Below, in pieces: positions 13,921-63,996 of a stretch of DNA of 64,000 nt. The first letter of the stretch is position 1, and the number at the start of each line of letters is the position of its first letter. The notes under the pieces are model-generated. The model saw only the letters and a list, made by a program, of their open reading frames with translations, had not been told where the DNA came from and ran no database searches. This DNA comes from a virus. The translations under genes and the position numbers were made by a program. Location of the stretch: positions 1,476-65,475 of the IMG/VR virus record IMGVR_UViG_3300028048_000141. One strand, written 5' to 3'.

Positions 13921-14556
13921 ATCCGTCTGTATATGTTTTGAGTGTTCTTTGCGAAATGATTTAAGACCGGCCTTCGCCGTACAATACTTCCCAACCGTAC
14001 CTTGTTATCCGACATTCACTGGCTCTGAGGGCAAGGGAGCGACCCAAGCACTTTTCCAATGGCCACTTGCGTGACGATACAACGCCGGGGAGCGGAACCC
14101 CGGAACTTTCACCGAACTTCAGAGACATAAAATCCTTAAGTCATCGTTTTAAAAAGACGTGATACGGCTACTCGCTCGACTTCGATTCCTTATAGCACAT
14201 TACTGTGCGTCAACACGTCCGATACCCGTAGGGTGAGTTGCCGGGCATTATGTTTCTCAGGCATAATACCGCAGGCGGGATGGGATTACTCCCAGTGCCT
14301 CTTGTGGGGCGGAATCCGAAGTCAGGACTAGATACCATTGACATACTGCGACACTGACCAGAGCCTTGCCCTCACGGGTAGGTGAACCGTCCGTAGGCAT
14401 CGCTGCCTTTCCTTCAAGGTCTCGCTTTCCGGAACAGTATCCCATTCCGTAATCGCTACGTCGGCCAGACCCCTGCGGTCCGTAAGACCATCTTCACAGG
14501 GTTGTCAATAAATCCTTTCTCAAAGAACACTCGTGAACCACGCTCTCGCATCGTTC
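13921..14556 (-). ncRNA. candidate structured ncRNA of about 630 nt; ORF-free, bounded by a promoter and a terminator
   Basis: No ORF of 60 aa or longer in any frame. Motif-A -10 at 14565-14570. The terminator at 13897-13920 closes it. GC-rich with many local hairpins. Confidence 0.3.
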
Positions 14557-14682: not shown

Positions 14683-14757
14683 TGGCTGGGGCGGGTGGAT
14701 TCGGACCACCGCATCCGCGGTTCAAAGCCGCGTGCCTTACCGCTTGGCTACACCCCA
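14683..14757 (-). tRNA. tRNA-Gln (anticodon UUG)
   Basis: Cloverleaf parsed by hand. Acceptor UGGGGUG/CGCCCCA, anticodon loop CUUUGAA, encoded CCA. Confidence 0.75.
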
Positions 14758-14762
14758 ATGTG

Positions 14763-14838
14763 TGGCACCCTCTGGGGGACTCGAACCCTCAACCTACTGC
14801 TTAGGAGGCAGTCGCGATATCCTTTTCGCCAAGAGGGT
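14763..14838 (-). tRNA. tRNA-Arg (anticodon CCU)
   Basis: Acceptor ACCCUCU/AGAGGGU, loop CUCCUAA, T-loop UUCGAGU, CCA. Confidence 0.7.
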
Positions 14839-14846
14839 GTGTCGGT

Positions 14847-14922
14847 TGGCACCCCGGGCAGGACTCGAACCTGCAACTTACTGCTTAGAAGGCAGTTACT
14901 CTATCCATTGAGTTACCGGGGT
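14847..14922 (-). tRNA. tRNA-Arg (anticodon UCU)
   Basis: Acceptor ACCCCGG/CCGGGGU, D-stem ACUC/GAGU, loop CUUCUAA, 76 nt, CCA. Confidence 0.8.
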
Positions 14923-14950
14923 ATTTATGGGCTTTCCGTCCACCCACCGT

Positions 14951-14962
14951 ATATTATACACG
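14951..14962 (-). promoter_or_regulatory. internal motif-A promoter inside the tRNA cluster
   Basis: atattatacacg on the + strand. Confidence 0.4.
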
Positions 14963-15009
14963 AAATCGGCAGAGGATGCAAATGTTTTTTTTCGGATGCG
15001 TTCCATCCG

Positions 15010-15083
15010 TGGCGGGCCCTGAGAGAATCGAACTCACATTCTTCGGTTAACAGCCGAGCGTTCTGCCTTTGAACTAAGGGCCC
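15010..15083 (-). tRNA. tRNA-Asn (anticodon GUU)
   Basis: Acceptor GGGCCCU/AGGGCCC, loop CUGUUAA, T-loop UCGAUUC. Confidence 0.75.
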
Positions 15084-15086
15084 GTA

Positions 15087-15171
15087 TGGTGGGAGGTGAT
15101 AGAGTCGAACTACCCGAGCCGATGGCAACTGTTTTACAGACAGTCCCGCTACCCCTACGGTATAACCTCCC
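15087..15171 (-). tRNA. tRNA-Tyr (anticodon GUA), class II
   Basis: 85 nt with a long variable arm. Loop CUGUAAA. Acceptor GGGAGGU/ACCUCCC. Confidence 0.75.
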
Positions 15172-15175
15172 GCGT

Positions 15176-15246
15176 TGGTCGCCGCACATGGAATCGGACC
15201 ATGCCTACGGAGGTATGAACTCCGCTTCGCCCCAGACTATACGGCG
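15176..15246 (-). tRNA. tRNA-Met/Ile2-like (anticodon CAU)
   Basis: Anticodon stem CGGAG/CUCCG with loop UUCAUAC. T-arm CAUGG-UCCGAUU-CCAUG. The D-arm folds poorly. Confidence 0.5.
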
Positions 15247-15248
15247 TT

Positions 15249-15323
15249 TGGTGGATTAGGTTGCGCTCGAATCAACTTCTGCAGATTTTCAGTCTGCCAC
15301 TCTACCATATAAGTTACTAATCC
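15249..15323 (-). tRNA. tRNA-Phe (anticodon GAA)
   Basis: Acceptor GGAUUAG/CUAAUCC, anticodon stem GCAGA/UCUGC, loop CUGAAAA. Confidence 0.7.
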
Positions 15324-15327
15324 ATAT

Positions 15328-15405
15328 TGGTTGTGAGGACGGGATTCGAACCCATACCCTCCCGGCTCCGGACCGGGTGTGCTACCAAGTTACATCCACC
15401 TCACA
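15328..15405 (-). tRNA. tRNA-Pro (anticodon CGG)
   Basis: Stem CCCGG/CCGGG with loop UCCGGAG. Acceptor UGUGAGG/CCUCACA. Confidence 0.65.
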
Positions 15406-15409
15406 ATGT

Positions 15410-15485
15410 TGGTGCCCCGAGAGGGATTCGAACCCCCAGACTACTCGTTCTAAGCGAGCATTGTATACCGTTCCAGCATCGGGGC
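15410..15485 (-). tRNA. class-I tRNA-like with anticodon UAG (Leu-type anticodon in a 76-nt body); atypical D-arm
   Basis: Acceptor GCCCCGA/UCGGGGC, anticodon stem GCUCG/CGAGU, loop CUUAGAA, T-arm GGGGG-UUCGAAU-CCCUC. No canonical D-stem could be found. Confidence 0.4.
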
Positions 15486-15499
15486 GATTCGGACGGATG

Positions 15500-15574
15500 T
15501 GGTAGGCTGGGGCAGAGTCGGACTGCCGTCTCAGACTTATCAGGTCTGCGTTCTGACCGTTAAACTACGAGCCT
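15500..15574 (-). tRNA. tRNA-Ile (anticodon GAU)
   Basis: Stem CAGAC/GUCUG with loop CUGAUAA. T-arm GGCAG-UCCGACU-CUGCC. One C-C mismatch in the acceptor stem. Confidence 0.65.
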
Positions 15575-15580
15575 ATTCAT

Positions 15581-15658
15581 TGGCGGACCACGAGGGAGTC
15601 GAACCCTCCTCTCTACCGTGACAGGGTAGCATACTCAGAACCGATATACGAGTAGTCC
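15581..15658 (-). tRNA. tRNA-Asp (anticodon GUC)
   Basis: Stem CUACC/GGUAG with loop CUGUCAC. T-arm GAGGG-UUCGACU-CCCUC. Confidence 0.7.
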
Positions 15659-15662
15659 GTTT

Positions 15663-15739
15663 TGGTGCACTAGGGAGGGCTCGAACCTCCGACCTCCAAC
15701 TTGTAAGGTTGGCACTCATCCCATCTGAGTTACTAGTGC
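15663..15739 (-). tRNA. tRNA-Val (anticodon UAC)
   Basis: Acceptor GCACUAG/CUAGUGC, D-stem ACUC/GAGU, stem CCAAC/GUUGG, loop CUUACAA. Confidence 0.8.
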
Positions 15740-15748
15740 ATATTAATT

Positions 15749-15827
15749 TGGTCGGGAGGGTGGGATTCGAACCCACGCCCTCTTGCTTCCAACGCAAGCA
15801 CGATAGACCAAACTACGCTACCTCCCG
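15749..15827 (-). tRNA. tRNA-Pro (anticodon UGG)
   Basis: Acceptor CGGGAGG/CCUCCCG, stem CUUGC/GCAAG, loop GUUGGAA, T-arm GUGGG-UUCGAAU-CCCAC. Confidence 0.7.
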
Positions 15828-15930
15828 ATGAAAAAGGGTGACACGGATTTTTCGTCCATGCCACCCTCGAAGTTGATTTAGAGCCTTGTTACCGCTAATT
15901 ACCACCTGAAATGGGCATGGACAAATAACC

Positions 15931-15945
15931 AATCATATTATAATC
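15931..15945 (-). promoter_or_regulatory. motif-A-like -10 (TATAAT) upstream of the tRNA block 15010-15827
   Basis: + strand catattataatcaaag. Confidence 0.35.
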
Positions 15946-16025
15946 AAAGACTGGTCTGGGTTGCACGAATACGAGATTGTCGTTTAGTCTCTTTGTCATG
16001 ATTGTCCTTCTCCTTTTTCAGACAC

Positions 16026-16036
16026 TTAATTTAGCG
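16026..16036 (-). promoter_or_regulatory. motif B. Its AGCGA forms a hairpin with a downstream TCGCT
   Basis: + strand TTAATTTAGCGAgtcgttttCGCT. Confidence 0.4.
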
Positions 16037-16093
16037 AGTCGTTTTCGCTTCAATGATTTTGTTAACAAACTTTTCGATTATGTCGTTTGTCAA

Positions 16094-16181
16094 TGGCGGA
16101 GGCACCGCGACTCGAACGCGGACGCCGGTTGCCCGACGGACACCTTAGCAGGGTGTTGAGATGCCATTACTCCATGCCTCC
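16094..16181 (-). tRNA. tRNA-Ser (anticodon GCU), class II
   Basis: 88 nt. Acceptor GGAGGCA/UGCCUCC, loop CUGCUAA, long variable arm. Confidence 0.75.
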
Positions 16182-16195
16182 TGGTTTAACTTCAA

Positions 16196-16269
16196 TGGAG
16201 CGGGCGACGGGAATCGAACCCGTATGACCACCTTGGCAAGGTGGCGTTCTACCATTGAACTACGCCCGC
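16196..16269 (-). tRNA. tRNA-Gly (anticodon GCC)
   Basis: Acceptor GCGGGCG/CGCCCGC, D-stem GUUC/GAAC, stem CCACC/GGUGG, loop UUGCCAA. Confidence 0.8.
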
Positions 16270-16272
16270 AAA

Positions 16273-16347
16273 TGGAGCGGGATACCGGAATCGAACCGGC
16301 GTCTCCTGCTTGGAAGGCAGGGGCCCTGACCATTGGACTAATCCCGC
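16273..16347 (-). tRNA. tRNA-Gly (anticodon UCC)
   Basis: Acceptor GCGGGAU/AUCCCGC, stem CCUGC/GCAGG, loop CUUCCAA. Confidence 0.8.
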
Positions 16348-16350
16348 ATG

Positions 16351-16427
16351 TGGAGACCCCAACGGGATTCGGACCCGTGAATGCAACCTTGAGAGGGTTG
16401 TGACTTAAGCCGCTTGTCTATGGAGCC
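16351..16427 (-). tRNA. tRNA-Glu (anticodon CUC)
   Basis: Acceptor GGCUCCA/UGGGGUC with two G-U pairs. Stem CAACC/GGUUG, loop CUCUCAA. Confidence 0.65.
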
Positions 16428-16449
16428 GTTTTATGATGTTACTATACAC

Positions 16450-17100
16450 CACATCATGGGGGTGAGGCTTATTCTACGCTCGTTTCTATTTCGCCTCTGC
16501 CGTTCGCTTCCACGAGAAGGCACTTCACTAGCCCAGCCTGCTTTCTTCTTACAGGAACATTCTAGGTTCTACCTGGGAGGGACTGTACCCACATACACAG
16601 GATTCTGGGTGTGGAACTTTTCCGGATGCCGTTTTGTGCATCACACGCTGTACTTGGTGGACTCGTTTATGCTGTGCCCTTTTGCAGCCGTAGGCGTAAT
16701 ATCCCGCTTCCGTTTGAATTCGGGCAGTTTGATGTGATTGCCCGGCACATTAGGTGTGCACGCTTACCCTTCCTCTCGTCGTGCCTCCTACCGTTCCTTT
16801 TTTACTTCTTCGGCGTAACGGCTAAGATACCAATTAAGGTTTTGTTTATTTGTCCTGCTTCTTCAACGACCTGCGCCGTCTGAGCCGGGCCTTTTGATTC
16901 GACGCACTTCCCGGTCGCGTCACCATTAGCCAGGTCCTACCTTATCCTGGTTTTCAACCCCATTCTGCATCATCCCGGATATTCGGGACCGTTTTCTCAA
17001 GGGTGAGGTCGCAGAGGTTTTACGTCTTCGTGCCGACGGGCTGTAAACATGATGCCTTAATACAATCACTTGCGGCATATGCTGTTATCATAGGGAAGTG
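16450..17100 (-). ncRNA. candidate structured ncRNA of about 650 nt; ORF-free, downstream of tRNA-Trp
   Basis: No credible ORF; the + strand ORFs here overlap tRNAs or have no signals. GC-rich. Bounded by tRNA-Trp and the tRNA-Glu promoter. Identity unknown. Confidence 0.25.
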
Positions 17101-17112
17101 AATGACCTATGA

Positions 17113-17186
17113 TGGCAGGCCTGCTAGGATTCGAACCCGGATACGCGGTTTTGGAGACCGCAGTCCTACCGTTGGACGACAGACCT
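17113..17186 (-). tRNA. tRNA-Trp (anticodon CCA)
   Basis: Acceptor AGGUCUG/CAGGCCU, D-stem GUCC/GGAC, stem GCGGU/ACCGC, loop CUCCAAA. Confidence 0.7.
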
Positions 17187-17196
17187 ATGTTCAGGA

Positions 17197-17718
17197 TTAG
17201 TCTTCTTCCGACTTCTCCTGTTCGAGAACCCAATCCAGGTTCTCCTTGTCGACATACCATATCTCGGCCTCATCGCCGTCGATTTTGGTCGGGTGGAATA
17301 CCCAGTCGCCTGATTTGACCTTCAATGCGTCGTTGATGTAGACATCTCCCCATCCGTCGCATTTCCTGAAGCCAACCCAGTATTTCCAATCCTTAAGGAA
17401 CCTCTCGGCATCATTCGCCTTCATTTCCATAAGTTGTTCCTCGGTGAAGTAGTGTGACAGCAACCAAGCCGCGGCGTACTCCGAGGATATCGAATCCTCG
17501 TCAATACATACCTTACGGCAGATGCCGTCCATCAGGGCTCCGGCAGACAGTTTGTCGTAGACCCTGCCACCATAACCCTCGTGCATGCAGAACGTGGCGA
17601 TGTCCGCGTAATCGAGGACGACGTCCCTCTTGCCTTCGTATTCACCCATTGTGAAGTAATTGGCCGTGAGTTTGAAGTGGTCGACCACCTTCAATTCAAG
17701 TTCATCCAAAACAAGCAT
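17197..17718 (-). CDS. hypothetical protein
   Basis: The listed ORF start overlaps tRNA-His. The ATG at 17718 (MLVLDEL...) has an AAAGGAG RBS. Confidence 0.55.
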   Translation of the reverse strand: MLVLDELELKVVDHFKLTANYFTMGEYEGKRDVVLDYADIATFCMHEGYGGRVYDKLSAGALMDGICRKVCIDEDSISSEYAAAWLLSHYFTEEQLMEMKANDAERFLKDWKYWVGFRKCDGWGDVYINDALKVKSGDWVFHPTKIDGDEAEIWYVDKENLDWVLEQEKSEED

Positions 17719-17736
17719 AGACTCTCCTTTCTGCAT

Positions 17737-17811
17737 TGGGGTGGGATAAGGGTGTCGAACCCATGTCCTCCGGTTCACAGCCGGATGCACTGCCGTTGTG
17801 CTAATCCCACC
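17737..17811 (-). tRNA. tRNA-His (anticodon GUG) with a genomically encoded G-1 and C73
   Basis: Reads G-GUGGGAU...AUCCCAC-C-CCA. Stem UCCGG/CCGGA, loop CUGUGAA. The extra 5' G pairs with discriminator C73. Confidence 0.75.
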
Positions 17812-17819
17812 AAGGTATG

Positions 17820-17905
17820 TGGTGCCCATGGTCGGACTCGAACCGACACGCTTTAGGGGCGGCAGATTTTGAGTCTGCTGCGTCTACCGGTTTCGCCACA
17901 CGGGC
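17820..17905 (-). tRNA. tRNA-Leu (anticodon CAA), class II
   Basis: 86 nt. Stem GCAGA/UCUGC, loop CUCAAAA, long variable arm, T-arm GUCGG-UUCGAGU-CCGAC. Confidence 0.7.
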
Positions 17906-17909
17906 ATGA

Positions 17910-17997
17910 TGGCGGAGAGTTAGGGATTCGAACCCCAGGTAGGTTGCCCTACTTCTGTTTTCAAGACAGACGCCTTCGACCGCTCGGCCAACTCTCC
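17910..17997 (-). tRNA. tRNA-Ser (anticodon UGA), class II
   Basis: 88 nt. Acceptor GGAGAGU/ACUCUCC, loop CUUGAAA. Confidence 0.8.
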
Positions 17998-18026
17998 ATT
18001 ATGGCTCCAGAAGGAGCCGTCGTTCA

Positions 18027-18428
18027 TTACTTGTCGCTCTTCAAGTAGGCGTGGCGAGCATCCAACTCGTCGATGGCCTCGCGAACCGTGTGTGCAAGGT
18101 AATCGACCTTGTTGAGCAGTTTTACGAGTGCCTCGCGGGCTTCGCGGTTGCCTTTGGCTTCCGCACGCTTGGATGCTAACACCTTACCGAAGATTTCGTC
18201 ATAGACGTCGTTGGGATTGCATTTGGCAACGCCGGCGGTCTTGAATCCGACTTCGGCGTTGCAGGAATTCCAGTTGAACGCCTGCGCCTCGTCAAGGGCC
18301 CGCATGACTTCCGAATGGGCCTTGTCGATGGCTTTGTCGGGCCTGTAGTTGGTGATGCCAAGCACAGTGGTGACGGGTCCTTTGCGAATGACTTTCTTCT
18401 CGGTGAATTTGAATGCCTTGGTGCTCAT
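18027..18428 (-). CDS. hypothetical protein
   Basis: 133-aa ORF. Confidence 0.5.
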   Translation of the reverse strand: MSTKAFKFTEKKVIRKGPVTTVLGITNYRPDKAIDKAHSEVMRALDEAQAFNWNSCNAEVGFKTAGVAKCNPNDVYDEIFGKVLASKRAEAKGNREAREALVKLLNKVDYLAHTVREAIDELDARHAYLKSDK

Positions 18429-18458
18429 GAGATTTCCTCCTTAATTATAGGTATTCAT

Positions 18459-18532
18459 TGGTGCCCCAGGGTCGAATCGAACGGCCGTCGGATGCTTACA
18501 AGGCAACTGTTCTGCCATTAAACTACAAGGGC
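18459..18532 (-). tRNA. tRNA-Thr (anticodon UGU)
   Basis: Acceptor GCCCUUG/CUGGGGC, D-stem GUUU..GAAC, loop CUUGUAA. A few mismatches. Confidence 0.55.
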
Positions 18533-25665: not shown

Positions 25666-26541
25666 TTATTCCCCGACGTTGATGAGGTTTTCGACGTAGT
25701 CCCTTCCGGAGTCGACGAACCTCGGGATGTCGTCGTCGATATCCCATCTGCTGTAGAATTTGGTATCGCGTGGAAGTTCGCATGTGCTGTCTGTGAAGAA
25801 CAACCATCCGCCTTCCGGTGTCGGATAGACCTCTTCCTCGGAGTGCTCGTTTCCGTCGGGGTCCTTGAAGTAGCACCTCTTGACGCAGCAACTGCCACGT
25901 TTGTATGTGGTAGGTTCGTTTCCCCAAACAAATCCCTTCTCCCTCTCCATCTTGTCGACGAGTTGCGGGCAGGTGAGGTTTTGGAGTTGCTTGTGGGAGA
26001 ACATGGATTGGGCATAGGATTGGATGGAGTTCCTCTCCGCGTCCAACTGCCTCCAAAAAATGCAGTTCGTTACCTCTTCCTTCGGGATGTTGAACGCCCT
26101 GGCGTCGAACGTGGCCTGGAAGAGTTTCCTTGCGTATTTCTTGAATTCGTTTTCGTTCTCGGTCATCTCCGCGATGTTGTTCATGAACACCCTGTTGAAT
26201 TCGAGGGTGGCCATCGAAGCACTGATTGAGACGAGTTTCTGGACGTCGTATTCGAACCAGGCGGAAGACGTGAGCGTCTGATAGTCGACCAACACCAACG
26301 TGATTTCGTCCGATTGCGTGTATCCCAGGACGCAGCCCTGGATGTTCTTGCAGAGGTACTGCATCGTCTCCTGCATGGACTTGACGAGTATCGCGTCGAT
26401 TGGTTTGTCCATCCCCTTCGTGAATGTGTGGAAGGCCCTGCCGTCGATTCTGATGATTACCGGTGTCCTTCTGGTTAGTTTGAGTTTTGCGGGGTTTTCG
26501 TAGAATGCCTTCATCCTATCCCCAAGTGAGTCCTTTACCAT
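25666..26541 (-). CDS. Thg1-like protein (tRNA-His guanylyltransferase family, 3'-5' polymerase)
   Basis: VIIRIDGRAFHTF and LGYTQSDEITLVL match the two hallmark Thg1 catalytic motifs, VVVRLDGRNFHRF and AYGQSDEYSFVF. Confidence 0.75.
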   Translation of the reverse strand: MVKDSLGDRMKAFYENPAKLKLTRRTPVIIRIDGRAFHTFTKGMDKPIDAILVKSMQETMQYLCKNIQGCVLGYTQSDEITLVLVDYQTLTSSAWFEYDVQKLVSISASMATLEFNRVFMNNIAEMTENENEFKKYARKLFQATFDARAFNIPKEEVTNCIFWRQLDAERNSIQSYAQSMFSHKQLQNLTCPQLVDKMEREKGFVWGNEPTTYKRGSCCVKRCYFKDPDGNEHSEEEVYPTPEGGWLFFTDSTCELPRDTKFYSRWDIDDDIPRFVDSGRDYVENLINVGE

Positions 26542-30492: not shown

Positions 30493-30878
30493 CAGTAATC
30501 CTCCCCGTTGCCGTAATTCACCATGACTTCCCTGAGGTCCCGGTGTTGTTCCGCGGCCTCCATTATATCTATTAATTTAGCCTCACACAATTTCTTCCTC
30601 TGATAGAAGGTGGTATTGAGGAAGGTATTGATTTCCTTGATTATCTTTACTTCCTTGTATTCCATCCTCTTAAGGGAACTCGTGTAACCGTTGGGCAGAT
30701 GGTCGATGTCGGGGATGACCGGGCCCCAAGTGAATATGGTCGTGGTTCCAAGCGACGTCCTCGCCACCATGTAGAAGTACACACCATCCTCGGTGCATGC
30801 CTCTATGGCGAAATTGCCGATGTCCTCTATCTTCAATAGGTTCTGGGCCGTAGACAATCGATTGTATTCAAAATCCAT
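30492..30878 (-). CDS. hypothetical protein
   Basis: 128-aa ORF. It contains an internal motif-B-like 11-mer at 30573. Confidence 0.5.
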   Translation of the reverse strand: MDFEYNRLSTAQNLLKIEDIGNFAIEACTEDGVYFYMVARTSLGTTTIFTWGPVIPDIDHLPNGYTSSLKRMEYKEVKIIKEINTFLNTTFYQRKKLCEAKLIDIMEAAEQHRDLREVMVNYGNGEDY

Positions 30879-31549
30879 TATTTTTTGTCTTCCTTGATTT
30901 CCTCGGGCTTCTCAAGCGTGATTTCGCCTGACGCGACGCCTGCCATGAATTTAATGGCATCGTCGATTCTCTTCAACTCGGGGTCCTCCTGGATTTCCTT
31001 TTGGAGTTCCTCGTTCCTCTTCTTGAGGGAATCAATCCACATCTCGATGATTTGTGTTTGGATTTCCTCCGGTGCCTTGTCGAAGTCCTCGTCAATCTCA
31101 AGTCCGATGTCCGACAGTAGGATTCCGTCCAATAGGTTGACCATTTGCTCGAAGACCTCTGCGACCACGCCTTCGAACTTGTTTTCCTCGACGTATCCGT
31201 TGGGTTTCTGGTACTTGGCGAGGATTCTGTCGTGTCTTGGGGTGATGAACGTCCTTCCGGGGAGGCTCGGCGAGGTTTCCCTTGCCAAATGCATGCCTTC
31301 CGTCTTGGTAATCATCGGATTGACGAACGTCCTGATTTCCCCATCGGAGAATTTGATGCAGAAGATTCTGTCGTCGTGTCCCAATTGGGGTGCGGCGAGT
31401 GCGACGACGTCGACGTTGTCCTTCAAGGTGTCCTTGAGGTCCGAAACTATCGATTGCGCCTCGCCTCTGCGTTGAAGCACGTTGATTTCCTCGCTTCTTT
31501 CCGACAATTTGTCTGTGTCGGTGCTGATTTTCAATACGTATTTTGCCAT
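30878..31549 (-). CDS. peptide-deformylase-like protein with all three metal ligands replaced; predicted catalytically inactive
   Basis: PDF motif 1 is conserved (VALAAPQLG against G-x-G-x-AA-x-Q). Motif 2 EGCLS is changed to ETSPS. Motif 3 QHExDH is changed to FEQMVN. Acidic C-terminal tail. Confidence 0.5.
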   Translation of the reverse strand: MAKYVLKISTDTDKLSERSEEINVLQRRGEAQSIVSDLKDTLKDNVDVVALAAPQLGHDDRIFCIKFSDGEIRTFVNPMITKTEGMHLARETSPSLPGRTFITPRHDRILAKYQKPNGYVEENKFEGVVAEVFEQMVNLLDGILLSDIGLEIDEDFDKAPEEIQTQIIEMWIDSLKKRNEELQKEIQEDPELKRIDDAIKFMAGVASGEITLEKPEEIKEDKK

Positions 31550-45522: not shown

Positions 45523-45597
45523 TGGTCCTCCAGCAGGGAGTCGAACCCCGATTTAGCCCTTATAAGGAGCCCACTCTGACCGTTGAGTTACAGGAGG
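45523..45597 (-). tRNA. tRNA-Ile (anticodon UAU, reads AUA)
   Basis: D-stem ACUC/GAGU. Anticodon stem GGCUC/GGGCU with G-U pairs. Loop CUUAUAA. T-arm CGGGG-UUCGACU-CCCUG. Confidence 0.55.
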
Positions 45598-45605
45598 ATA
45601 TGTCA

Positions 45606-45690
45606 TGGTGCCCAAGACCGGAGTCGAACCGGTATGCCTTTCGGCGAGGGATTTTAAGTCCCTTGCGTCTACCGATTCCGCCACTCGGGC
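45606..45690 (-). tRNA. tRNA-Leu (anticodon UAA), class II
   Basis: 85 nt. Acceptor GCCCGAG/CUUGGGC, stem AGGGA/UCCCU, loop CUUAAAA, long variable arm. Confidence 0.75.
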
Positions 45691-45693
45691 AAT

Positions 45694-45773
45694 TGGTTGC
45701 AGGACTAGGAGTCGAACCTAGTATCTCAACCGGTTATGGGCCGTGAATGGTATATCCGTTCCACTCTCCTGCA
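45694..45773 (-). tRNA. tRNA of undetermined identity (80 nt)
   Basis: Clear acceptor UGCAGGA/UCCUGCA, T-arm CUAGG-UUCGACU-CCUAG, and ACCA. The anticodon arm could not be folded canonically; a CAU triplet is present. Confidence 0.4.
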
Positions 45774-45827
45774 ATATATGTAATCGAGGTCTTTTATAAC
45801 GGTGTCTCTTAACCGAGGATAATCGTT

Positions 45828-46224
45828 TGGTGGACCCGCCGGGAGTCGAACCCGGGTCCAAATACCTTTGGGCGACAATCTCTACATCTTAGTCGATTTG
45901 ATTGTGACGGCAGGATGTTTAACCGACAACGTCCCCTGACCGTGTACGCCACATTTGTTTTCGCTTTCCTCGGGTGACGTTCCTCGGTTCGCTAGTCCGA
46001 TTGTTTGCCCGAATACCGCCATCAGACTTCACGGGATTCAGGAGAGCCGTTACTCAGATTAGTAACTTAAGGCCATTCTAGGAGTGCCAACTTTGAAGAG
46101 GTTGGCGAAGAATGATTTGACTCTGTTGATTAAAGATTTGCCATTTGTTGTTTGTTTGGTTTATGGTGACCAACCGATGCAATCGTAACCCGCAAATACC
46201 TGTCAAAACCAAATATACGAGCCC
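45828..46224 (-). ncRNA. ssrA: tmRNA (SsrA), about 397 nt
   Basis: 3' end GGACCCGGGUUCGACUCCCGGCGGGUCCACCA is a T-arm plus acceptor with no anticodon arm, as in E. coli GGACGCGGGUUCAACUCCCGCCAGCUCCACCA. The 5' end GGGCUCG pairs with CGGGUCC including a G3-U70 wobble, and A73 follows. The 5' region UUUGACAGGUAUUUGCG and GGUUGGUCACCAUAAACC parallel E. coli UUCGACGGGAUUUGCG and GGUUGGCCUCGUAAAAAGCC. The tag ORF is not resolved. Confidence 0.65.
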
Positions 46225-46282
46225 AGTTTGTTTTTCCCGACCTGGCAATGGCCGGAAGCACGGATTTCCCATCCGCACCCTT

Positions 46283-46311
46283 ATTTTAGCACGTTTGGGC
46301 AGGCAAGTCAA
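46283..46311 (-). promoter_or_regulatory. sigma70 promoter TTGACT, 17-nt spacer, TAAAAT, upstream of the tmRNA
   Basis: Minus strand reads TTGACTtgcctgcccaaacgtgcTAAAAT. This implies a roughly 50-nt leader that would be removed by RNase P. Confidence 0.5.
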
Positions 46312-46362: not shown

Positions 46363-46755
46363 TTAGGCTTCGAATCCGCCGTCGTCATTGCCACCGTCAT
46401 TCCCTATTTTGCCAAGCATGCGCCTTGCGTTGTCCTGCTTGTTCTGGAGTGCGTTCTTCAGGAACCTGGCCCTTTGTTCATGGAAGTTGAGTTCCAATCC
46501 CATATGGTAGGTTTCCGCGACGTCCGCCTCCTCGGGCAATAGCCAGTAGGGCTTCGGGGCCTCGTCGTTGTCGTCGACGTATTCGATTAGCACCTTCGAT
46601 TTGCGGTCGTCGAGATTGACCGCCACCACGATTTTTCCGCCTTCCAGCAACATGGAGACCGTATCTCCGATTTTCTTGTAGAACGTGGCTGCGTCCGGAT
46701 AGTTGACCTTGTCCAGGACCACCCTGTTCACATCGTTTAGGATTGTCGTAATCAT
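46363..46755 (-). CDS. hypothetical protein
   Basis: 130-aa ORF. Confidence 0.5.
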   Translation of the reverse strand: MITTILNDVNRVVLDKVNYPDAATFYKKIGDTVSMLLEGGKIVVAVNLDDRKSKVLIEYVDDNDEAPKPYWLLPEEADVAETYHMGLELNFHEQRARFLKNALQNKQDNARRMLGKIGNDGGNDDGGFEA

Positions 46756-47108
46756 TTGGAATTCTCCTCCTCAAGTTTCCCCACGAGGAACCTGAACAGC
46801 GATTCGTCGATTAGGAAGTAGTTTTCGGTCCCGGGTGCGAACGTGACCGCTATGGCCGTGTTGGATAGGCGTTGCGTGAACGCCTCCTCTTTGTTCTTGT
46901 CAATCCATTCCTTTTTGATGGATATCGAACTTTTCTCGGATGTCGGCGTTTTGCATTCAATCAGCATGGACGCCCCGTCATGATGGACGTCGCCCTTTCT
47001 GAACTTTCCGGCACCCGAGTTGGAGACCTGTTGCCCTCCGACCAGTTTGACGACCGATTTCTCCTGCATGTCGGAGTAGTACCTAGTGCTTTCCCTGTTC
47101 TTAGTCAT
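46752..47108 (-). CDS. putative PD-(D/E)xK nuclease (VRR-NUC-like)
   Basis: GAGKFRKGDVHHDGASMLIECKT fits the G..G.(P)D...ExK pattern. Sits next to the recombinase gene. Confidence 0.45.
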   Translation of the reverse strand: MTKNRESTRYYSDMQEKSVVKLVGGQQVSNSGAGKFRKGDVHHDGASMLIECKTPTSEKSSISIKKEWIDKNKEEAFTQRLSNTAIAVTFAPGTENYFLIDESLFRFLVGKLEEENSK

Positions 47109-48273
47109 CGGCCTGTTCCTTCGCCAAATCGACCCCGAACTTCTCCTCGATATCGGTATCGAGCATCTCGTTGAAGATGGCGACGTAGTTGTCTTCCTTC
47201 TTTTCGAGTCTCTCGTAAATCTTGGTGTAGAGTTTCTTCCAGACGTCCTTGTGTTCCTCGAAATATGCCTTGAGTTTCTTTCTGCCCTGGACCTTGATTG
47301 GCTTGCCGTTGTCGTCGAACATGGCCGCGCCTTCGTAGTCCGGATTCATCACCACATACCATCCGGCGGACGCGTTCATGATGTAGCCGAAGTGCAAGGC
47401 GACGTCGATTGTGTCTTCGAGGATGTCCACGCCCCTGACGTAGTTGAGGTGCATGTATCCGACTTTCCTGTCCCACTTGCAGACTTTCGTCTTGAGGACG
47501 GCCACCTCGATGATGTGTCCTGCCGGCGATTCGGCCTTGGTGGTCAGTTTCGCGCCTTCGTCGTCGAAGAATTCGCCACGCTTGAACATGAGCCTCATGG
47601 AGCATGCGTGTTTCCAGGCACGTCCGCCGGGGGTCATCAGGAAGTCGCCATAGCCGGAGAGGTTTTCCCTGACCTGGTTGATTGCGACCAACGTGGCCTT
47701 GTATTTCCTCAACAGCCCGATTGCCGTGTTGGCGAACCTGGTCAATGAGCCTGAGATTCCGCCCATCTGTTTCTTTTCCATCGATTCGTTGGCGATTTGC
47801 ATGGGAACCAACGTGGCGATTGAGTCGAAGATGAGCAAACCGACCTCTCCGGTCTTCAGCATCTCCAACGCCATGTCGAAGATTTCCTCGGCCGATTGCG
47901 CCTCCGGTCTGATGATGACCGTCCTGACGGGTGCATCGGCATCCATGTCGTATCCGAGTTTCTTTGCCCAGACCGGGTCAGCGGTGCCCTCGTTGTCCAA
48001 TAGGACGATGGCACGTGGATTGTCGGGGTTCCTTTCGATTTCGGCCCTTTGGTATGATGCCGCAATCATGAACGCGGTGGTGGTTTTTCCCGAACCCTCG
48101 GCACCACTCAATTCGATGATACGTCCCTCAGGCACACCGCCGTAAACGCAGTAATCGAACGACGGGGAACCCAACGAAAGCATGCCGTCGACGGACAATT
48201 CCTCGACGCCTACCTTGACGACAGAGTCGCCGTATTTCTTTGAGATGTTCTTCAATACATCGGTTAATCCCAT
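47101..48273 (-). CDS. RecA/UvsX-family recombinase
   Basis: Walker A SGAEGSGKTT. RecA core LLIFDSIATLVP. 390 aa. AAGGAGG RBS. Confidence 0.8.
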   Translation of the reverse strand: MGLTDVLKNISKKYGDSVVKVGVEELSVDGMLSLGSPSFDYCVYGGVPEGRIIELSGAEGSGKTTTAFMIAASYQRAEIERNPDNPRAIVLLDNEGTADPVWAKKLGYDMDADAPVRTVIIRPEAQSAEEIFDMALEMLKTGEVGLLIFDSIATLVPMQIANESMEKKQMGGISGSLTRFANTAIGLLRKYKATLVAINQVRENLSGYGDFLMTPGGRAWKHACSMRLMFKRGEFFDDEGAKLTTKAESPAGHIIEVAVLKTKVCKWDRKVGYMHLNYVRGVDILEDTIDVALHFGYIMNASAGWYVVMNPDYEGAAMFDDNGKPIKVQGRKKLKAYFEEHKDVWKKLYTKIYERLEKKEDNYVAIFNEMLDTDIEEKFGVDLAKEQADD

Positions 48274-60325: not shown

Positions 60326-61693
60326 TTAATTTCCTCCGGGAACGATGATGCTGAGTGCGTCGTCACCAGCGACAACGTCAGGCAAGTTGCCATCCCATTT
60401 AGCGAGGTATGCGAGGTATTGTAGGTAGTCCTCTACGAGCGATTTGAACTTATCGGCACCGGGTCCGGTTGTGATGTCGATGTCATACTTGGTGGCAACC
60501 AACGTGACCGTCGTGGTTACCGTCATAGTTCCGGTTTCGATTCCGACGGTTTCTGTCGTGGTGGATTCCGCCTGTTTGACATCGAACACGTCTTCGGCAG
60601 TCGCGATTGTTACGTCACCGTTGGAGTATTCGGTCTTGACTTCTGTCTTGTAAGTATACTCTTCGTTGACGGTATAACCTATGGTTCTCGCCAACTCGAT
60701 GATGTTGTAGGTTGCCGCCTCGGCTGAAGCCTGCGCGACAATCTTCTGCGCCTCGGCGTTACCGTGGGCCTCCTCGATTTTCTTCTTCGCCTCAAGTTTG
60801 GCGACCTCCAATTCGGCTTCCGCCTTGGTGATGGACGCCTGCTTTTGCTGTTCCGCGATGACTTTGTCCTCGACGGCCTTCTCGAACTCATCTGTGAAAT
60901 CGATGTTGGTCAAGACGACGTCTTTGACGTTCACGTAATAGTCGGCGGAGATTCCATTCCTGACGTTATCGGAAACGTTATTGGAGAATTGCGCACGGTT
61001 TTGGATGATTGTCATGGCTTCGGCGGAAGACATGATGGCCTTCGTCTTTTCGATGGCGACTGTTTCGATACGGGCCTGAAGTGCGTCGAGGCTTCCGTAT
61101 TCGGTCGCGATTTTCATGATGTTCTCGCTTTGGACCTGATACTGTAAGAATACCTCAAGTTCCATCGTCTGCCCGTCTTTGGAATAGGCGAACGTGGTGA
61201 TTTTGTCCTGTTGGACCTTGGTATCGTAGGTTTCGTACTTGTTGGTCATGTAGAAGTCGAAGTACGTGCCCGGCAACCTCAAATCGTTAATCTTACCGAG
61301 TTGTCTGACGACGGCGACGGTACCGGTTTCGACCTGATGGAACGAACCGGGGACGGTGATGACGAACGCCAATGCGGCCAATGTCAGGCCGACGGCGGTC
61401 AAGAATCCGAGGGGCTTTGCCTCAGTGACCTGATGTTCGGCCTTGTACTGTTCGACGAGTGTATCGTATTTCTTGTTTTCCCTGGCGAGTTCCGCATCTG
61501 CTGTCTTACCGGAATACTGAAACTTGATATAGTCGATGCTTTCCTTGTGTTTTTTCTCGAGTTCGGCCAAGCCGTCTTCGTAACGGGATTCCTCTTCGCT
61601 CCTCTTGGAGTATTTGATTCCCTGCCAGATGGCGATGCCGGCCACGGCGGCCAATACCAAGAAACCCACCGTGAATAGAATTGCCTTAATCAT
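60326..61693 (-). CDS. SPFH/band-7 (stomatin/HflC-like) membrane protein
   Basis: N-terminal TM helix, second TM, SPFH core VETGTVAVVRQLGKINDLRLPGTYF, coiled coil, Thr-rich C-terminus. Confidence 0.65.
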   Translation of the reverse strand: MIKAILFTVGFLVLAAVAGIAIWQGIKYSKRSEEESRYEDGLAELEKKHKESIDYIKFQYSGKTADAELARENKKYDTLVEQYKAEHQVTEAKPLGFLTAVGLTLAALAFVITVPGSFHQVETGTVAVVRQLGKINDLRLPGTYFDFYMTNKYETYDTKVQQDKITTFAYSKDGQTMELEVFLQYQVQSENIMKIATEYGSLDALQARIETVAIEKTKAIMSSAEAMTIIQNRAQFSNNVSDNVRNGISADYYVNVKDVVLTNIDFTDEFEKAVEDKVIAEQQKQASITKAEAELEVAKLEAKKKIEEAHGNAEAQKIVAQASAEAATYNIIELARTIGYTVNEEYTYKTEVKTEYSNGDVTIATAEDVFDVKQAESTTTETVGIETGTMTVTTTVTLVATKYDIDITTGPGADKFKSLVEDYLQYLAYLAKWDGNLPDVVAGDDALSIIVPGGN

Positions 61694-61722: not shown

Positions 61723-63996
61723 TTATAACCTGAATTTAGATAGGGAGTCAAAGCATTTTTCCATGAATTTCTCCCTGAGGCTGATTATATCCGTCGGATA
61801 TGGATACGTGGGTGCCTCGCCCTTCGTCTTGACGGCGTCGTTCTCATATGCGTCCCTGCAGAACGCGTAGAATAGGTTTTCGAGGTATGACGTCAACATT
61901 CCCGTCTTCGTGATGTAACCGCATCTCAACGTCGTCGTCGCGACTCCCCTCAACTTCTTCCATAGATTGTAGTATCCCGTCTTGGCCTTGAACATGAATC
62001 CGGCCGAGTCCTCGAACACGAATCCCTCGACGTACTCACCGTTCAATTGGTATTCTACGTCATCCAAGGATTTGTAGAACTCATATAACGAATCCCAGTC
62101 CTTGAACTCATATACCAACTTCTTATGCTCGAACCCGAGTTCGTCCGCGATTGCCGACATCTCATTGTATCCGAGTTTCTCGAACGTGAGTTTGTTTTTT
62201 ATGATGTCAAGCAACACGAGTTTGCTCTTATCGTATTTTATGATGTGCGGGTCGTTCTTTACGTCGATGCACTCGAACACGAAACTGACTTTTTCGTCCG
62301 GGTTTTGCAGGGTTTTCTGTTTTTCCCTGAACCAGTTCAACAAAGAGTTCCATAACTTGTCGTCGTCTTGGTGCAACGCCGTGTGGATGTATTTGGCGAA
62401 ATCCCCGCCGAGTGATGACTTGCTTGCAATCAACAGGTCGTCCTTTTCCTCGTCATATGACACGATTGCGAGGAACCCGTTCTCCTTAAGGTAGGCCGAT
62501 ACCGGGAACACCAGGTTTGATTTGAGCGAAGCGGGCTCAGTGGCCGCGACCTCGCCGACCCTGAAGAACTTCTCATAACTCCTTGCCGCCACCTCATACT
62601 TGGCCGTGTCGATGAACAGGCCGCGTGCCAGGATTGTCTGACGGTTCCAGTTGCCCTTCTCGAAGGCTTCCCTGCTGAAGTTGAATGACGAGATGTTCCT
62701 ACCTTGGTCCTTCTCGTTGACGAACCTGTTGTTTCTGAGATAGTCTACGGCATCCTTGACCGTTTCGACCGGCCTTTCCTCCGTGTTGAGGTTTTCGTTG
62801 ACCGGCTGGCAGTCGTCCAGGTAAACGGGCGTCCACTTCAGGTTCCTGTCCAACTCTACGATTCTGAGTTGTCCGCCGAACTCGACCCTGCCCTCAAGGT
62901 TGAAAACCCTGTCGCAGATATCGATTTCGCTGCCCTCCGTGTTCCTGTGGCCATGGACGAGGAATTGGTTTTCCTTCGTCTGCGCCATCCAGGATTCGGA
63001 AACGGTGATGTAGTCGCTGTAGGTCCCGGCCCCGTGGATGAACTTATCCGTAGGCAGGAACAACGGGTTAGTGTTCAGGTTGGGGATGCCGCCATGGCAG
63101 GCGAGAATCTCCAAACCGTTGTATGTGATGTGGGAGAACTGCCTGCATTTGCGGTAGAACATCCTGGCCATCTTCTCGTCGAATCCGCCCTCAATCAAAG
63201 CCGGCTTCGTCTTGTATTCGAACTCGCGTGACCTGGCTGGAACACCTTCGCCGTAATCGCGAATCCAACGCTCGTGGTTTCCCTCAAGCAGACAGACGTT
63301 CGGCAGGTCCTTGATTGAATCAAGCCACTTCAGAACCTCGCAGTTTTGGTTTCCGCGGTCGATGTAGTCGCCCAAGAAGATGTATTCGTATTTCGGATTC
63401 AATCCGTTTTTGAAATCCGGATACTGCATCAAGGTGTCGAAGCACCCGTGGATGTCCCCGACGAACACGAGTTTTTCGTACTCGGAGACGTCGAACGGCT
63501 CGTCCAGGATGGATTCGAATTCGTCCGGCTGGATTACCTTGATTCCCGCCGGGACCTTTTGGGTCGCGTAACGGGCGTAGATATTGAGGATTGCCTTATC
63601 CGGAACAATCTTCTCCTGGGGCCTCATCCTGTTTTGCTTCAGACATGTCTCAAGCGGAACGCCCGTGAAATCTACGCAGAACATCCTGTATCTGTACTTG
63701 GACGCAAGGTCCTTGTACTGCTGCATGTCCTTGGTCTTTGAGCAGGTTGCGTCGATGACGGTGAATTCGCCGCGTTGCATCCTGTGCTCAAGAATCTTGA
63801 ACAAGACTGACCAAACCTCGTTTTCGTTGTCCCTTTCCTGCGAGATTGAGAACTCGCCGAAAGCGTTCAGGTCGACTGAACTGCAGAGGATTCTGATGTC
63901 GTCCGGGGACAACGTGTAGTTCTTAAGGTGGTGCTTCTCAATCCAGGTCGTTTTGCCTGCGCCAGGGGCACCACGCATCAATAATAGAGTTCTCAT
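61723..63996 (-). CDS. Pnkp-like RNA repair enzyme: 5' kinase, metallophosphatase, and ligase/adenylyltransferase domains
   Basis: P-loop GAPGAGKTT. Central calcineurin-like motifs VFVGDIHGC, GDYIDRG and GNHE. C-terminal KENG lysine motif. Same domain order as Clostridium thermocellum Pnkp. Confidence 0.7.
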   Translation of the reverse strand: MRTLLLMRGAPGAGKTTWIEKHHLKNYTLSPDDIRILCSSVDLNAFGEFSISQERDNENEVWSVLFKILEHRMQRGEFTVIDATCSKTKDMQQYKDLASKYRYRMFCVDFTGVPLETCLKQNRMRPQEKIVPDKAILNIYARYATQKVPAGIKVIQPDEFESILDEPFDVSEYEKLVFVGDIHGCFDTLMQYPDFKNGLNPKYEYIFLGDYIDRGNQNCEVLKWLDSIKDLPNVCLLEGNHERWIRDYGEGVPARSREFEYKTKPALIEGGFDEKMARMFYRKCRQFSHITYNGLEILACHGGIPNLNTNPLFLPTDKFIHGAGTYSDYITVSESWMAQTKENQFLVHGHRNTEGSEIDICDRVFNLEGRVEFGGQLRIVELDRNLKWTPVYLDDCQPVNENLNTEERPVETVKDAVDYLRNNRFVNEKDQGRNISSFNFSREAFEKGNWNRQTILARGLFIDTAKYEVAARSYEKFFRVGEVAATEPASLKSNLVFPVSAYLKENGFLAIVSYDEEKDDLLIASKSSLGGDFAKYIHTALHQDDDKLWNSLLNWFREKQKTLQNPDEKVSFVFECIDVKNDPHIIKYDKSKLVLLDIIKNKLTFEKLGYNEMSAIADELGFEHKKLVYEFKDWDSLYEFYKSLDDVEYQLNGEYVEGFVFEDSAGFMFKAKTGYYNLWKKLRGVATTTLRCGYITKTGMLTSYLENLFYAFCRDAYENDAVKTKGEAPTYPYPTDIISLREKFMEKCFDSLSKFRL

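Follow-up and report, generated by a model that had tools for sequence, protein, structure and literature searches.

We analyzed a 64,000-nucleotide stretch of DNA from a virus, positions 1,476 to 65,475 of IMG/VR record IMGVR_UViG_3300028048_000141 (the whole stretch is called the window here), in which a gene for transfer-messenger RNA (tmRNA) lies among phage replication genes. The Rfam covariance model RF00023 matches this gene from end to end (model positions 1-374 of 374) with 94.6 bits, twice its gathering score of 47, and an E-value of 1.4e-35, bearing out the tmRNA that a preliminary description of the sequence had proposed. The match defines a full-length, one-piece molecule of 397 nucleotides (nt) in its mature form, at 45828..46224 on the minus strand. 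Its 5' start, GGGCUCG, and its 3' end, GGACCCGGGUUCGACUCCCGGCGGGUCCACCA, form a 7-base-pair acceptor stem (GGGCUCG/CGGGUCC) that contains G3·U70 and a U5·G wobble and is followed by A73 and an encoded CCA. The tRNA-like domain has a T arm and no anticodon arm; like the two alanine identity elements, this had been described from the sequence and was found in place. ARAGORN recovered the same gene ends, 45828 and 46224, when its thresholds were lowered to 90%. The stretch had also been described as free of open reading frames, which holds only in part: mechanically called frames do overlap it, and none of them is credible. An independent public assembly, Logan SRR8442993, has the promoter and the tmRNA gene with 100% identity over 503 nt. 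The positions of the elements and of the adjoining genes are collected in Table 1.

Table 1. Elements of the tmRNA gene and adjoining genes, in window coordinates.
Feature	Position	Strand	Remark
UvsX-like recombinase	47101..48273	-	
Holliday junction resolvase	46752..47108	-	
Sigma-70-type promoter	46283..46311	-	TTGACT (46311-46306), 17-nt spacer, TG-extended TAAAAT (46288-46283); 10/12 match
Precursor leader, predicted start site to mature 5' end	46225..46282	-	about 50 nt; two small hairpins possible
5' acceptor strand GGGCUCG	46218..46224	-	G3 of G3·U70 at 46222
Pseudoknot 1 (PK1), GGUUGGUCACCAUAAACCAA	46156..46175	-	stems GG/CC and UGG(U)/(A)CCA; corresponds to PK1 in the Rfam alignment
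Tag reading frame	46059..46142	-	resume codon GGC 46142-46140; 27 sense codons, GKSLINRVKSFFANLFKVGTPRMALSY; stop UAA 46061-46059
Helix 5 hairpin	46049..46066	-	GUUACU-AAUCUG-AGUAAC, stop codon at apex
Pseudoknot 2 (PK2)	45995..46042	-	stem CCUGAAU/AUUCGGG, inner stem, loop GUCUGAU with downstream AUCGGAC
Region of pseudoknots 3 and 4 (PK3/PK4)	45891..45994	-	two hairpin domains; Rfam alignment, low posterior probability
T arm and 3' acceptor	45828..45856	-	T arm 45856-45838; 3' acceptor strand CGGGUCC 45838-45832; A73 and CCA 45831-45828

To assess the fold, the window copy was aligned with eight complete homologues taken from phage and metagenome contigs; identity across the columns of these nine sequences averages 70%. 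RNAalifold recovered the acceptor stem, the T arm, helix 2 and a PK2 stem, with compensatory changes in 26 of 52 pairs. Its small local helices at alignment columns 152-164 and 235-246 were replaced after inspection by helix 5 and the PK2 knot. The structure used for counting adds both PK1 stems and the knot helix of PK2 to the RNAalifold result and comprises 51 pairs. Standard pairs form in 96.5% of its cells, compared with 37-46% when the 3' partners are slid by 1-3 columns; 23 of the 51 pairs have changed on both sides, and none of 500 shuffles matched the observed pairing or covariation score.

The individual helices contribute unequally to this signal. The acceptor pairs G1-C, G2-C, G3·U and C4-G are unchanged in all nine sequences, the fifth acceptor pair is compensatory, and the T stem has two compensatory pairs. 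Helices 2-4, which include the long helix 2 and lead from the tRNA-like domain to PK1, comprise 19 pairs (10 compensatory) and are 90-100% paired. The helix 5 stem covaries among the homologues (GUUAC/GUAAC, GCUAC/GUAGC, UGCUAC/GUAAGCA), and PK2 (helices 7-9) has compensatory changes in 4, 4 and 2 pairs, its knot-forming helix GUCUGAU/AUCGGAC being 98.4% paired with two compensatory pairs.

The carrier is a large phage of gut or rumen type. Its genes in the window are phage genes, almost all of them on the minus strand, and the tmRNA sits in the replication module with its neighbors on the same strand. The recombination and replication set includes, besides the recombinase and the resolvase of Table 1, a clamp loader, a family A DNA polymerase, a sliding-clamp-like factor, a DnaB helicase, a primase, a topoisomerase and an SbcCD-like nuclease. 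The same locus recurs in related phage contigs of IMG/VR. This agrees with the phage origin proposed in the preliminary description and has to be set against another source for the gene, since ssrA is a common integration site. A bacterial ssrA lying on a piece of host DNA or at the edge of a prophage would not be a phage gene at all, and ssrA fragments are known from prophages (PMC9004378). The window gene is instead complete, is surrounded by same-strand phage replication genes with no integrase nearby, and keeps this place in other phage contigs. When one genome from each of 185,579 bacterial and archaeal species was scanned, neither of two family-specific patterns matched exactly anywhere. 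We consider a host origin hardly credible.

Relatives of the UvsX-like recombinase were found on 26 IMG/VR phage contigs. In the 75%-identity recombinase group (L001, L002, L003 and L017) a tmRNA again follows the recombinase gene at the corresponding place, and more distant recombinase relatives have no tmRNA within 6 kb. The tmRNA homologues score 91.1-92.7 bits against the Rfam model. Through pattern scans, L030 from IMG/VR and eight contigs from JGI metagenomes joined the set, among them L039, which is nearly identical to the window. The PK1 pattern occurred in seven stretches of IMG/VR; two of these were set aside, L027 because the pattern falls by chance inside a coding sequence and L029 because nhmmer detected no tmRNA there. 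An exact scan of IMG/VR with the tmRNA 3' end gave no matches. No match was found among 50,697 GenBank phage records, either by blastn with the region or by tblastn with the consensus tag peptide. By these searches the tmRNA appears to belong to a small lineage known from phage-like contigs only.

The part of the RNA that would be translated was located by comparison. Among the three frames downstream of PK1, the one beginning at GGC is alone in being open in all homologues, and the other two carry stops. In a nucleotide alignment made without regard to frame, the gaps within the tag segment are 3, 6 and 9 nt long, and thus in frame. In the tag alignment, serine is kept across switches between the codon families TCT and AGT/AGC, and the leucine codons CTC/TTA/TTG and the arginine codons AGA/CGA interchange with the residue kept. 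The uncorrected ratio of nonsynonymous to synonymous differences (pN/pS) of the tag is 0.39-0.6 within clades. Across the whole tag family there is no third-position excess (28/26/30 substitutions by codon position), so the argument for the frame rests on its openness, the in-frame indels, the codon-family switches and the within-clade pN/pS. The resume codon, G[GC]N, lies at tmRNA nt 83, 13 nt past the end of PK1 at nt 69, with an invariant A at position -4. In Escherichia coli the distance from PK1 to the resume codon is 12 nt, and A86, four bases ahead of that codon, sets the frame (PMC2481249). Default ARAGORN calls the homologue in L034 as a tmRNA in the same tag register, and at 90% thresholds it reads GKSLINRVKSFFANLFKVGTPRMALSY from the window with the remark 'Tag not identified'.

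The preliminary description had offered two candidate tags, a 26-residue peptide ending in ALSY and the short peptide ANL. The long tag stands, with 27 codons in place of 26. The short one would arise by resumption one base later, at GCA (GCA AAU CUU UAA), and would make rescue almost tagless. Its frame is not conserved and no other homologue has a matching short reading frame, for which reason we rejected it as the main frame. GCA is admittedly the commonest resume codon (PMC8012679), it too has an A at -4 in the window copy, and the Rfam alignment sets its consensus GCA one base off; the UA found at -5/-4 in eight of the nine sequences nevertheless suits a G[GC]N codon, and ARAGORN picks GGC. 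Resumption at GCA is therefore very improbable in our judgment.

Upstream, the TTGACT/TAAAAT promoter that had been pointed out is a 10/12 match with a TG extension, and the end of its -10 element lies 58 nt from the mature 5' end of the tmRNA. The 1.3-kb region holds two promoter-like sites, compared with 1.2±0.9 in shuffled sequence. The window, L039, L037 and L017 each have a promoter matching in at least 10 of 12 positions at a distance of 23-58 nt upstream, that of L017 being a perfect TTGACA-17-TATAAT with TG (12/12). In L034 and L038 the tmRNA begins a few bases behind the end of a tRNA, and most homologues have a tRNA or tRNA-like element starting a few bases past the CCA. This adjacency would fit co-transcription with tRNAs and maturation of the ends by tRNA processing enzymes.

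In the window, genes for tRNA-Ile(UAU) and tRNA-Leu(UAA), both of which read A-ending codons, follow a short way downstream of the tmRNA (45523-45690, minus strand), away from the main tRNA array, and probably share a transcript with it. A degenerate tRNA-Met(CAU)-like element (45698-45779, minus strand) separates the tmRNA from tRNA-Leu. It has a perfect 7-base-pair acceptor, UGCAGGA/UCCUGCA, an ACCA end and a T arm, together with a weak anticodon stem and the loop CCCAUAA, with C at position 33; L039 has the canonical CUCAUAA. Neither default ARAGORN nor Rfam (E ≤ 1) calls a tRNA in the window element, and ARAGORN identifies the homologous element in L034 (1123-1194) as tRNA-Met.

The window tag is 27 codons long and those of the family 24-27. 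Tag peptides known so far range from 8 to 35 residues (PMC8012679), so that this length is unusual yet not unprecedented. The tag of L039 is that of the window with N at position 17. The other predicted peptides are AKSLFSRVSAFFSNLFAPVMALSY in L001, AKSLFSRVAAFFSNMFAPVMALSY in L017, AKSIKSKVKAFFSNLFVTPRMALCY in L030, GKSLISKAKAFFSGLIARPQRMAVCY in L037 and L038, AEEKATRDGFFANLFTNNARAFARA in L034 and AKNVENRDGFFANLFNSQRAYARA in L041. Their most conserved core is FF[AS]NLF, for which the pair L037/L038 has FFSGLI. The peptides are basic and aromatic, with a net charge of +5 in the window, the added alanine included, and of +1 to +5 across the family; counting the tmRNA-borne alanine, 28 residues would be added to a nascent chain in the window. 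The tags end in LSY, LCY, VCY or ARA, the window tag in ...RMALSY, and no homologue ends in AA. The non-canonical, LAA-less tag suspected earlier is thus found throughout the family, and the window tag lacks the [YF]A[LV]AA-type end, with alanine at the last two positions, of a canonical ClpXP-type degron. The in-frame gaps, the codon-family switches and the within-clade pN/pS indicate that the tag peptide itself is under selection in this lineage.

Several observations weigh against a functional tmRNA with this tag. Default ARAGORN calls no tmRNA in the window or in the sub-region. Position 20 of the window tmRNA is U (GGUUUUGAC, 46205), in contrast to the C of all eight homologues and of the Rfam consensus, and position -5 of the resume codon is C (46147), where the other homologues have U; the near-identical L039 retains the conserved base at both, and in E. 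coli U85C is tolerated (PMC2481249). The pseudoknot structure that had been expected is upheld by covariation for PK2, through the compensatory pairs of its knot helix. PK1 can pair in all nine sequences without any variation and shows no covariation, a result that is uninformative because PK1 is invariant and was itself the search pattern. The PK3/PK4 region forms two hairpin domains in every homologue and is too divergent for pair counting. The pN/pS of the tag is only moderately below 1 within clades and approaches 1 between them. The Phe-Phe codons 11-12 (46107-46112, minus strand) are UUCUUC in all nine sequences and never UUU, the third Phe codon being UUC or UUU, so that part of the conservation of the tag region may act on the RNA, UUCUUC being nucleotide-invariant. 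No significant SmpB match was obtained in the 64-kb window or the fetched loci by tblastn with an E. coli SmpB sequence, a weak test, or by Pfam scans of the window, and the Pfam scans revealed no protease gene in the 64 kb. In DNA polymerase and recombinase, the nearest cultured relatives are phages of Clostridium, Streptococcus and Bacillus, with only 35-39% amino-acid identity.

The missing default call extends beyond the window. Default ARAGORN misses the window gene and six of the seven scanned homologue loci with a complete copy, whereas the Rfam model finds them. Since published surveys used these default settings, published frequencies of phage tmRNAs are probably underestimates.

The deviating bases at nt 20 and -5, which are otherwise conserved, could also be read as signs of a decaying relic, or of a decoy or inhibitor that titrates host trans-translation via SmpB, as proposed for the molecule of mycobacteriophage DS6A, which consists of a tRNA-like domain alone and whose inhibitory potential has been noted (PMC4131195). 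Such an RNA would not preserve an mRNA-like domain, an open tag frame, helix 5 and PK2 across homologues of about 70% column identity, and here these are maintained with compensatory and in-frame changes. We regard a decoy or relic as quite improbable. Apart from PK1, PK3 and PK4, to which covariation adds nothing, the sequence-level features of a tmRNA that could be looked for are present. On balance, we put the probability that the window element is a functional, phage-encoded one-piece tmRNA at about 0.8, and both its identity as tmRNA and the frame of its tag appear well supported by the comparative evidence.

What the tag does to a tagged protein is harder to read from its sequence. We judge it plausible, at about even odds, that the tag changes the fate of the proteins that receive it. 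The LAA C-terminus is what ClpX reads. The tag of this lineage may, with a chance of roughly one half, still mark released fragments for a receptor other than the LAA pocket of ClpX; candidates are Lon or FtsH, or a role as a membrane-binding amphipathic helix. The simpler possibility is an ordinary tmRNA whose tag still serves as a ClpXP or general degron in the host, so that rescue capacity is raised and protein fate stays the same. The length of the tag is within the range known for tmRNAs (PMC8012679), several proteases read hydrophobic C-termini (PMC9382460), and the ...AFARA and ...AYARA ends of two homologues, like the M-A-L-S-Y of the window, resemble a diverged ...YALAA. In a screen of C-terminal pentapeptides in E. 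coli, however, strong degrons were ssrA-like and enriched in alanine at the last two positions, and YALAS was much weaker than YALAA (PMC10862746). Strong degrons of that kind need a terminal Ala-Ala that no homologue has, and the conserved internal FF[AS]NLF would be needless for a purely C-terminal degron. We give an unchanged protein fate a sizeable chance, though one short of even.

A more specific proposal is that the tag is a purpose-built basic amphipathic helix, a membrane-targeting element like that of MinD, which would send fragments to the membrane (for example, to FtsH) or shield them from proteolysis. For the segment KSLINRVKSFFANLFK the helical hydrophobic moment is 0.59; counting against the proposal, 89 of 2000 shuffles reach that value, which makes it marginal, and the amphipathic signal is weaker or absent, without significance, in several homologues. 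We consider this role unlikely. The window also encodes an SPFH/Band 7 domain protein of 455 amino acids (60326-61693, minus strand; PF01145, 1.3e-26). Bacterial SPFH proteins HflK and HflC regulate FtsH, and the phage SPFH protein could connect with the unusual tag.

If the element is indeed a working tmRNA, a course of action can be outlined from its conserved parts and from general tmRNA biology. Host RNA polymerase would transcribe the tmRNA from its own promoter, the transcript probably running on into the tRNA-like element, tRNA-Leu and tRNA-Ile, and RNase P would cut off the leader of about 50 nt. Host alanyl-tRNA synthetase would then charge the molecule by way of G3·U70 and A73, and during infection, with host SmpB and EF-Tu, it would enter ribosomes that had stalled on mRNAs that are broken or lack a stop codon. 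The nascent chain would be moved onto the tmRNA-borne alanine, translation would resume at GGC, 13 nt after PK1, and GKSLINRVKSFFANLFKVGTPRMALSY would be added before the ribosome reached the UAA in the helix 5 loop, in the frame set by the comparative analysis. From these conserved elements we infer a function in trans-translation together with the three host factors. The most likely role of the gene is to keep ribosomes in circulation. Its carrier spends much on the upkeep of translation, as indicated by 25 tRNAs, a ROOL RNA and the enzymes that it encodes, namely a peptide deformylase, a Thg1-like enzyme and a kinase-phosphatase-RNA ligase fusion.

These accompanying genes are spread over the window. 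ARAGORN finds the 25 tRNA genes, 22 of them in an array at 14683-18532. The ROOL RNA (13950-14525, minus strand) matches Rfam RF03087 over its full length, at 160.9 bits against a cut-off of 99.1, and lies on the same strand about 160 nt from one end of this array. The Thg1-like protein belongs to the tRNA-His guanylyltransferase family (25666-26541, minus strand; PF04446, 6.8e-30), and the peptide deformylase is encoded at 30878-31549 (minus strand; PF01327). The fusion protein combines a polynucleotide kinase (AAA_33), a metallophosphatase and a T4 Rnl1-type RNA ligase (61723-63996, minus strand). These three translation and RNA-repair genes, along with the 25 tRNAs and the tmRNA, suggest a defense against host tRNA-cleaving systems. 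BspA-type leucine-rich repeats (PF13306) occur in two large proteins (6864-9662, 7.2e-73, and 11606-13861, 1.2e-12, both on the minus strand), which may serve in host recognition or as surface proteins. Shine-Dalgarno-like motifs precede 52 of 80 starts, and their frequency, together with the promoter type, fits a Bacillota host.

Phage tmRNAs are usually assumed to copy the host system, and to our knowledge they have been catalogued and almost never examined functionally. The present lineage appears to keep the RNA features needed for ribosome rescue, yet the degradation signal would be replaced by a selected peptide. This raises the question of whether the virus wants ribosome recycling only or also redirects the tagged proteins. 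If the membrane or shielding interpretation were true, the virus would be reprogramming the output of bacterial trans-translation; if the tag proved specific, it could serve as an orthogonal degron or localization tag.

Among known systems, the window molecule resembles the one-piece bacterial tmRNA (SsrA of E. coli, RF00023) in G3·U70, A73, the CCA end, a long helix 2, a putative PK1 followed about 12 nt later by a resume codon with A at -4, a stop in helix 5, and downstream pseudoknots, of which PK3 and PK4 are putative. Unlike E. coli SsrA, the window tmRNA is phage-encoded, resumes at GGC and carries a 27-codon basic, aromatic tag ending in ...MALSY rather than ...YALAA. Departures from the E. 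coli type have a precedent in Mollicutes, where the long ssrA tag of Mesoplasma florum has been switched to Lon (PMC9382460). That tag, like the one described here, is long, has internal hydrophobic or aromatic residues and a non-LAA end, and it illustrates a shift of protease; the two have no sequence similarity, the NYAFA ending is absent from the window tag, and a reading by Lon is not implied. The Bacillus subtilis MinD helix, KGMMAKIKSFFG, offers a local likeness of the form [KR]-[IV]-K-S-F-F-[GA], NRVKSFFA in the tag and AKIKSFFG in MinD (bioRxiv 10.1101/2024.06.11.598461), and both are basic amphipathic segments near a C-terminus. The match covers eight residues and could be due to chance, and the tag runs 12 residues further, so that we treat it as a lead and not as membership.

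Phage tmRNAs as such are well documented, and the novelty that the preliminary description implied for them was overstated. They occur in Bxz1-like mycobacteriophages and Bacillus phage G, the DS6A molecule consisting of a tRNA-like domain alone (PMC4131195); huge phages carry them (PMC7162821), and a survey with ARAGORN found tmRNA in 402 of 18,146 phage genomes (PMC9004378). The window shares with these a large, many-tRNA phage and a one-piece tmRNA in or beside a tRNA cluster (PMC4131195, PMC7162821, PMC9004378), and differs in that its gene has no detectable sequence match to GenBank phages. In one Bacillota example, Lactococcus phage phiL47 (KF926093, 50544-50889; positions 544-889 of our extract L044, plus strand), ARAGORN finds a tmRNA among tRNAs that the GenBank record leaves unannotated, listing the neighboring tRNAs alone. 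Its tag, VKTKLNIIANTQLAVA, has the canonical-like end LAVA, whereas the tags of the window lineage end in LSY, LCY, VCY or ARA. The gene is thus of a kind already known, a phage tmRNA, and what is new is a lineage found on phage-like contigs only, with a basic, aromatic, non-LAA tag.

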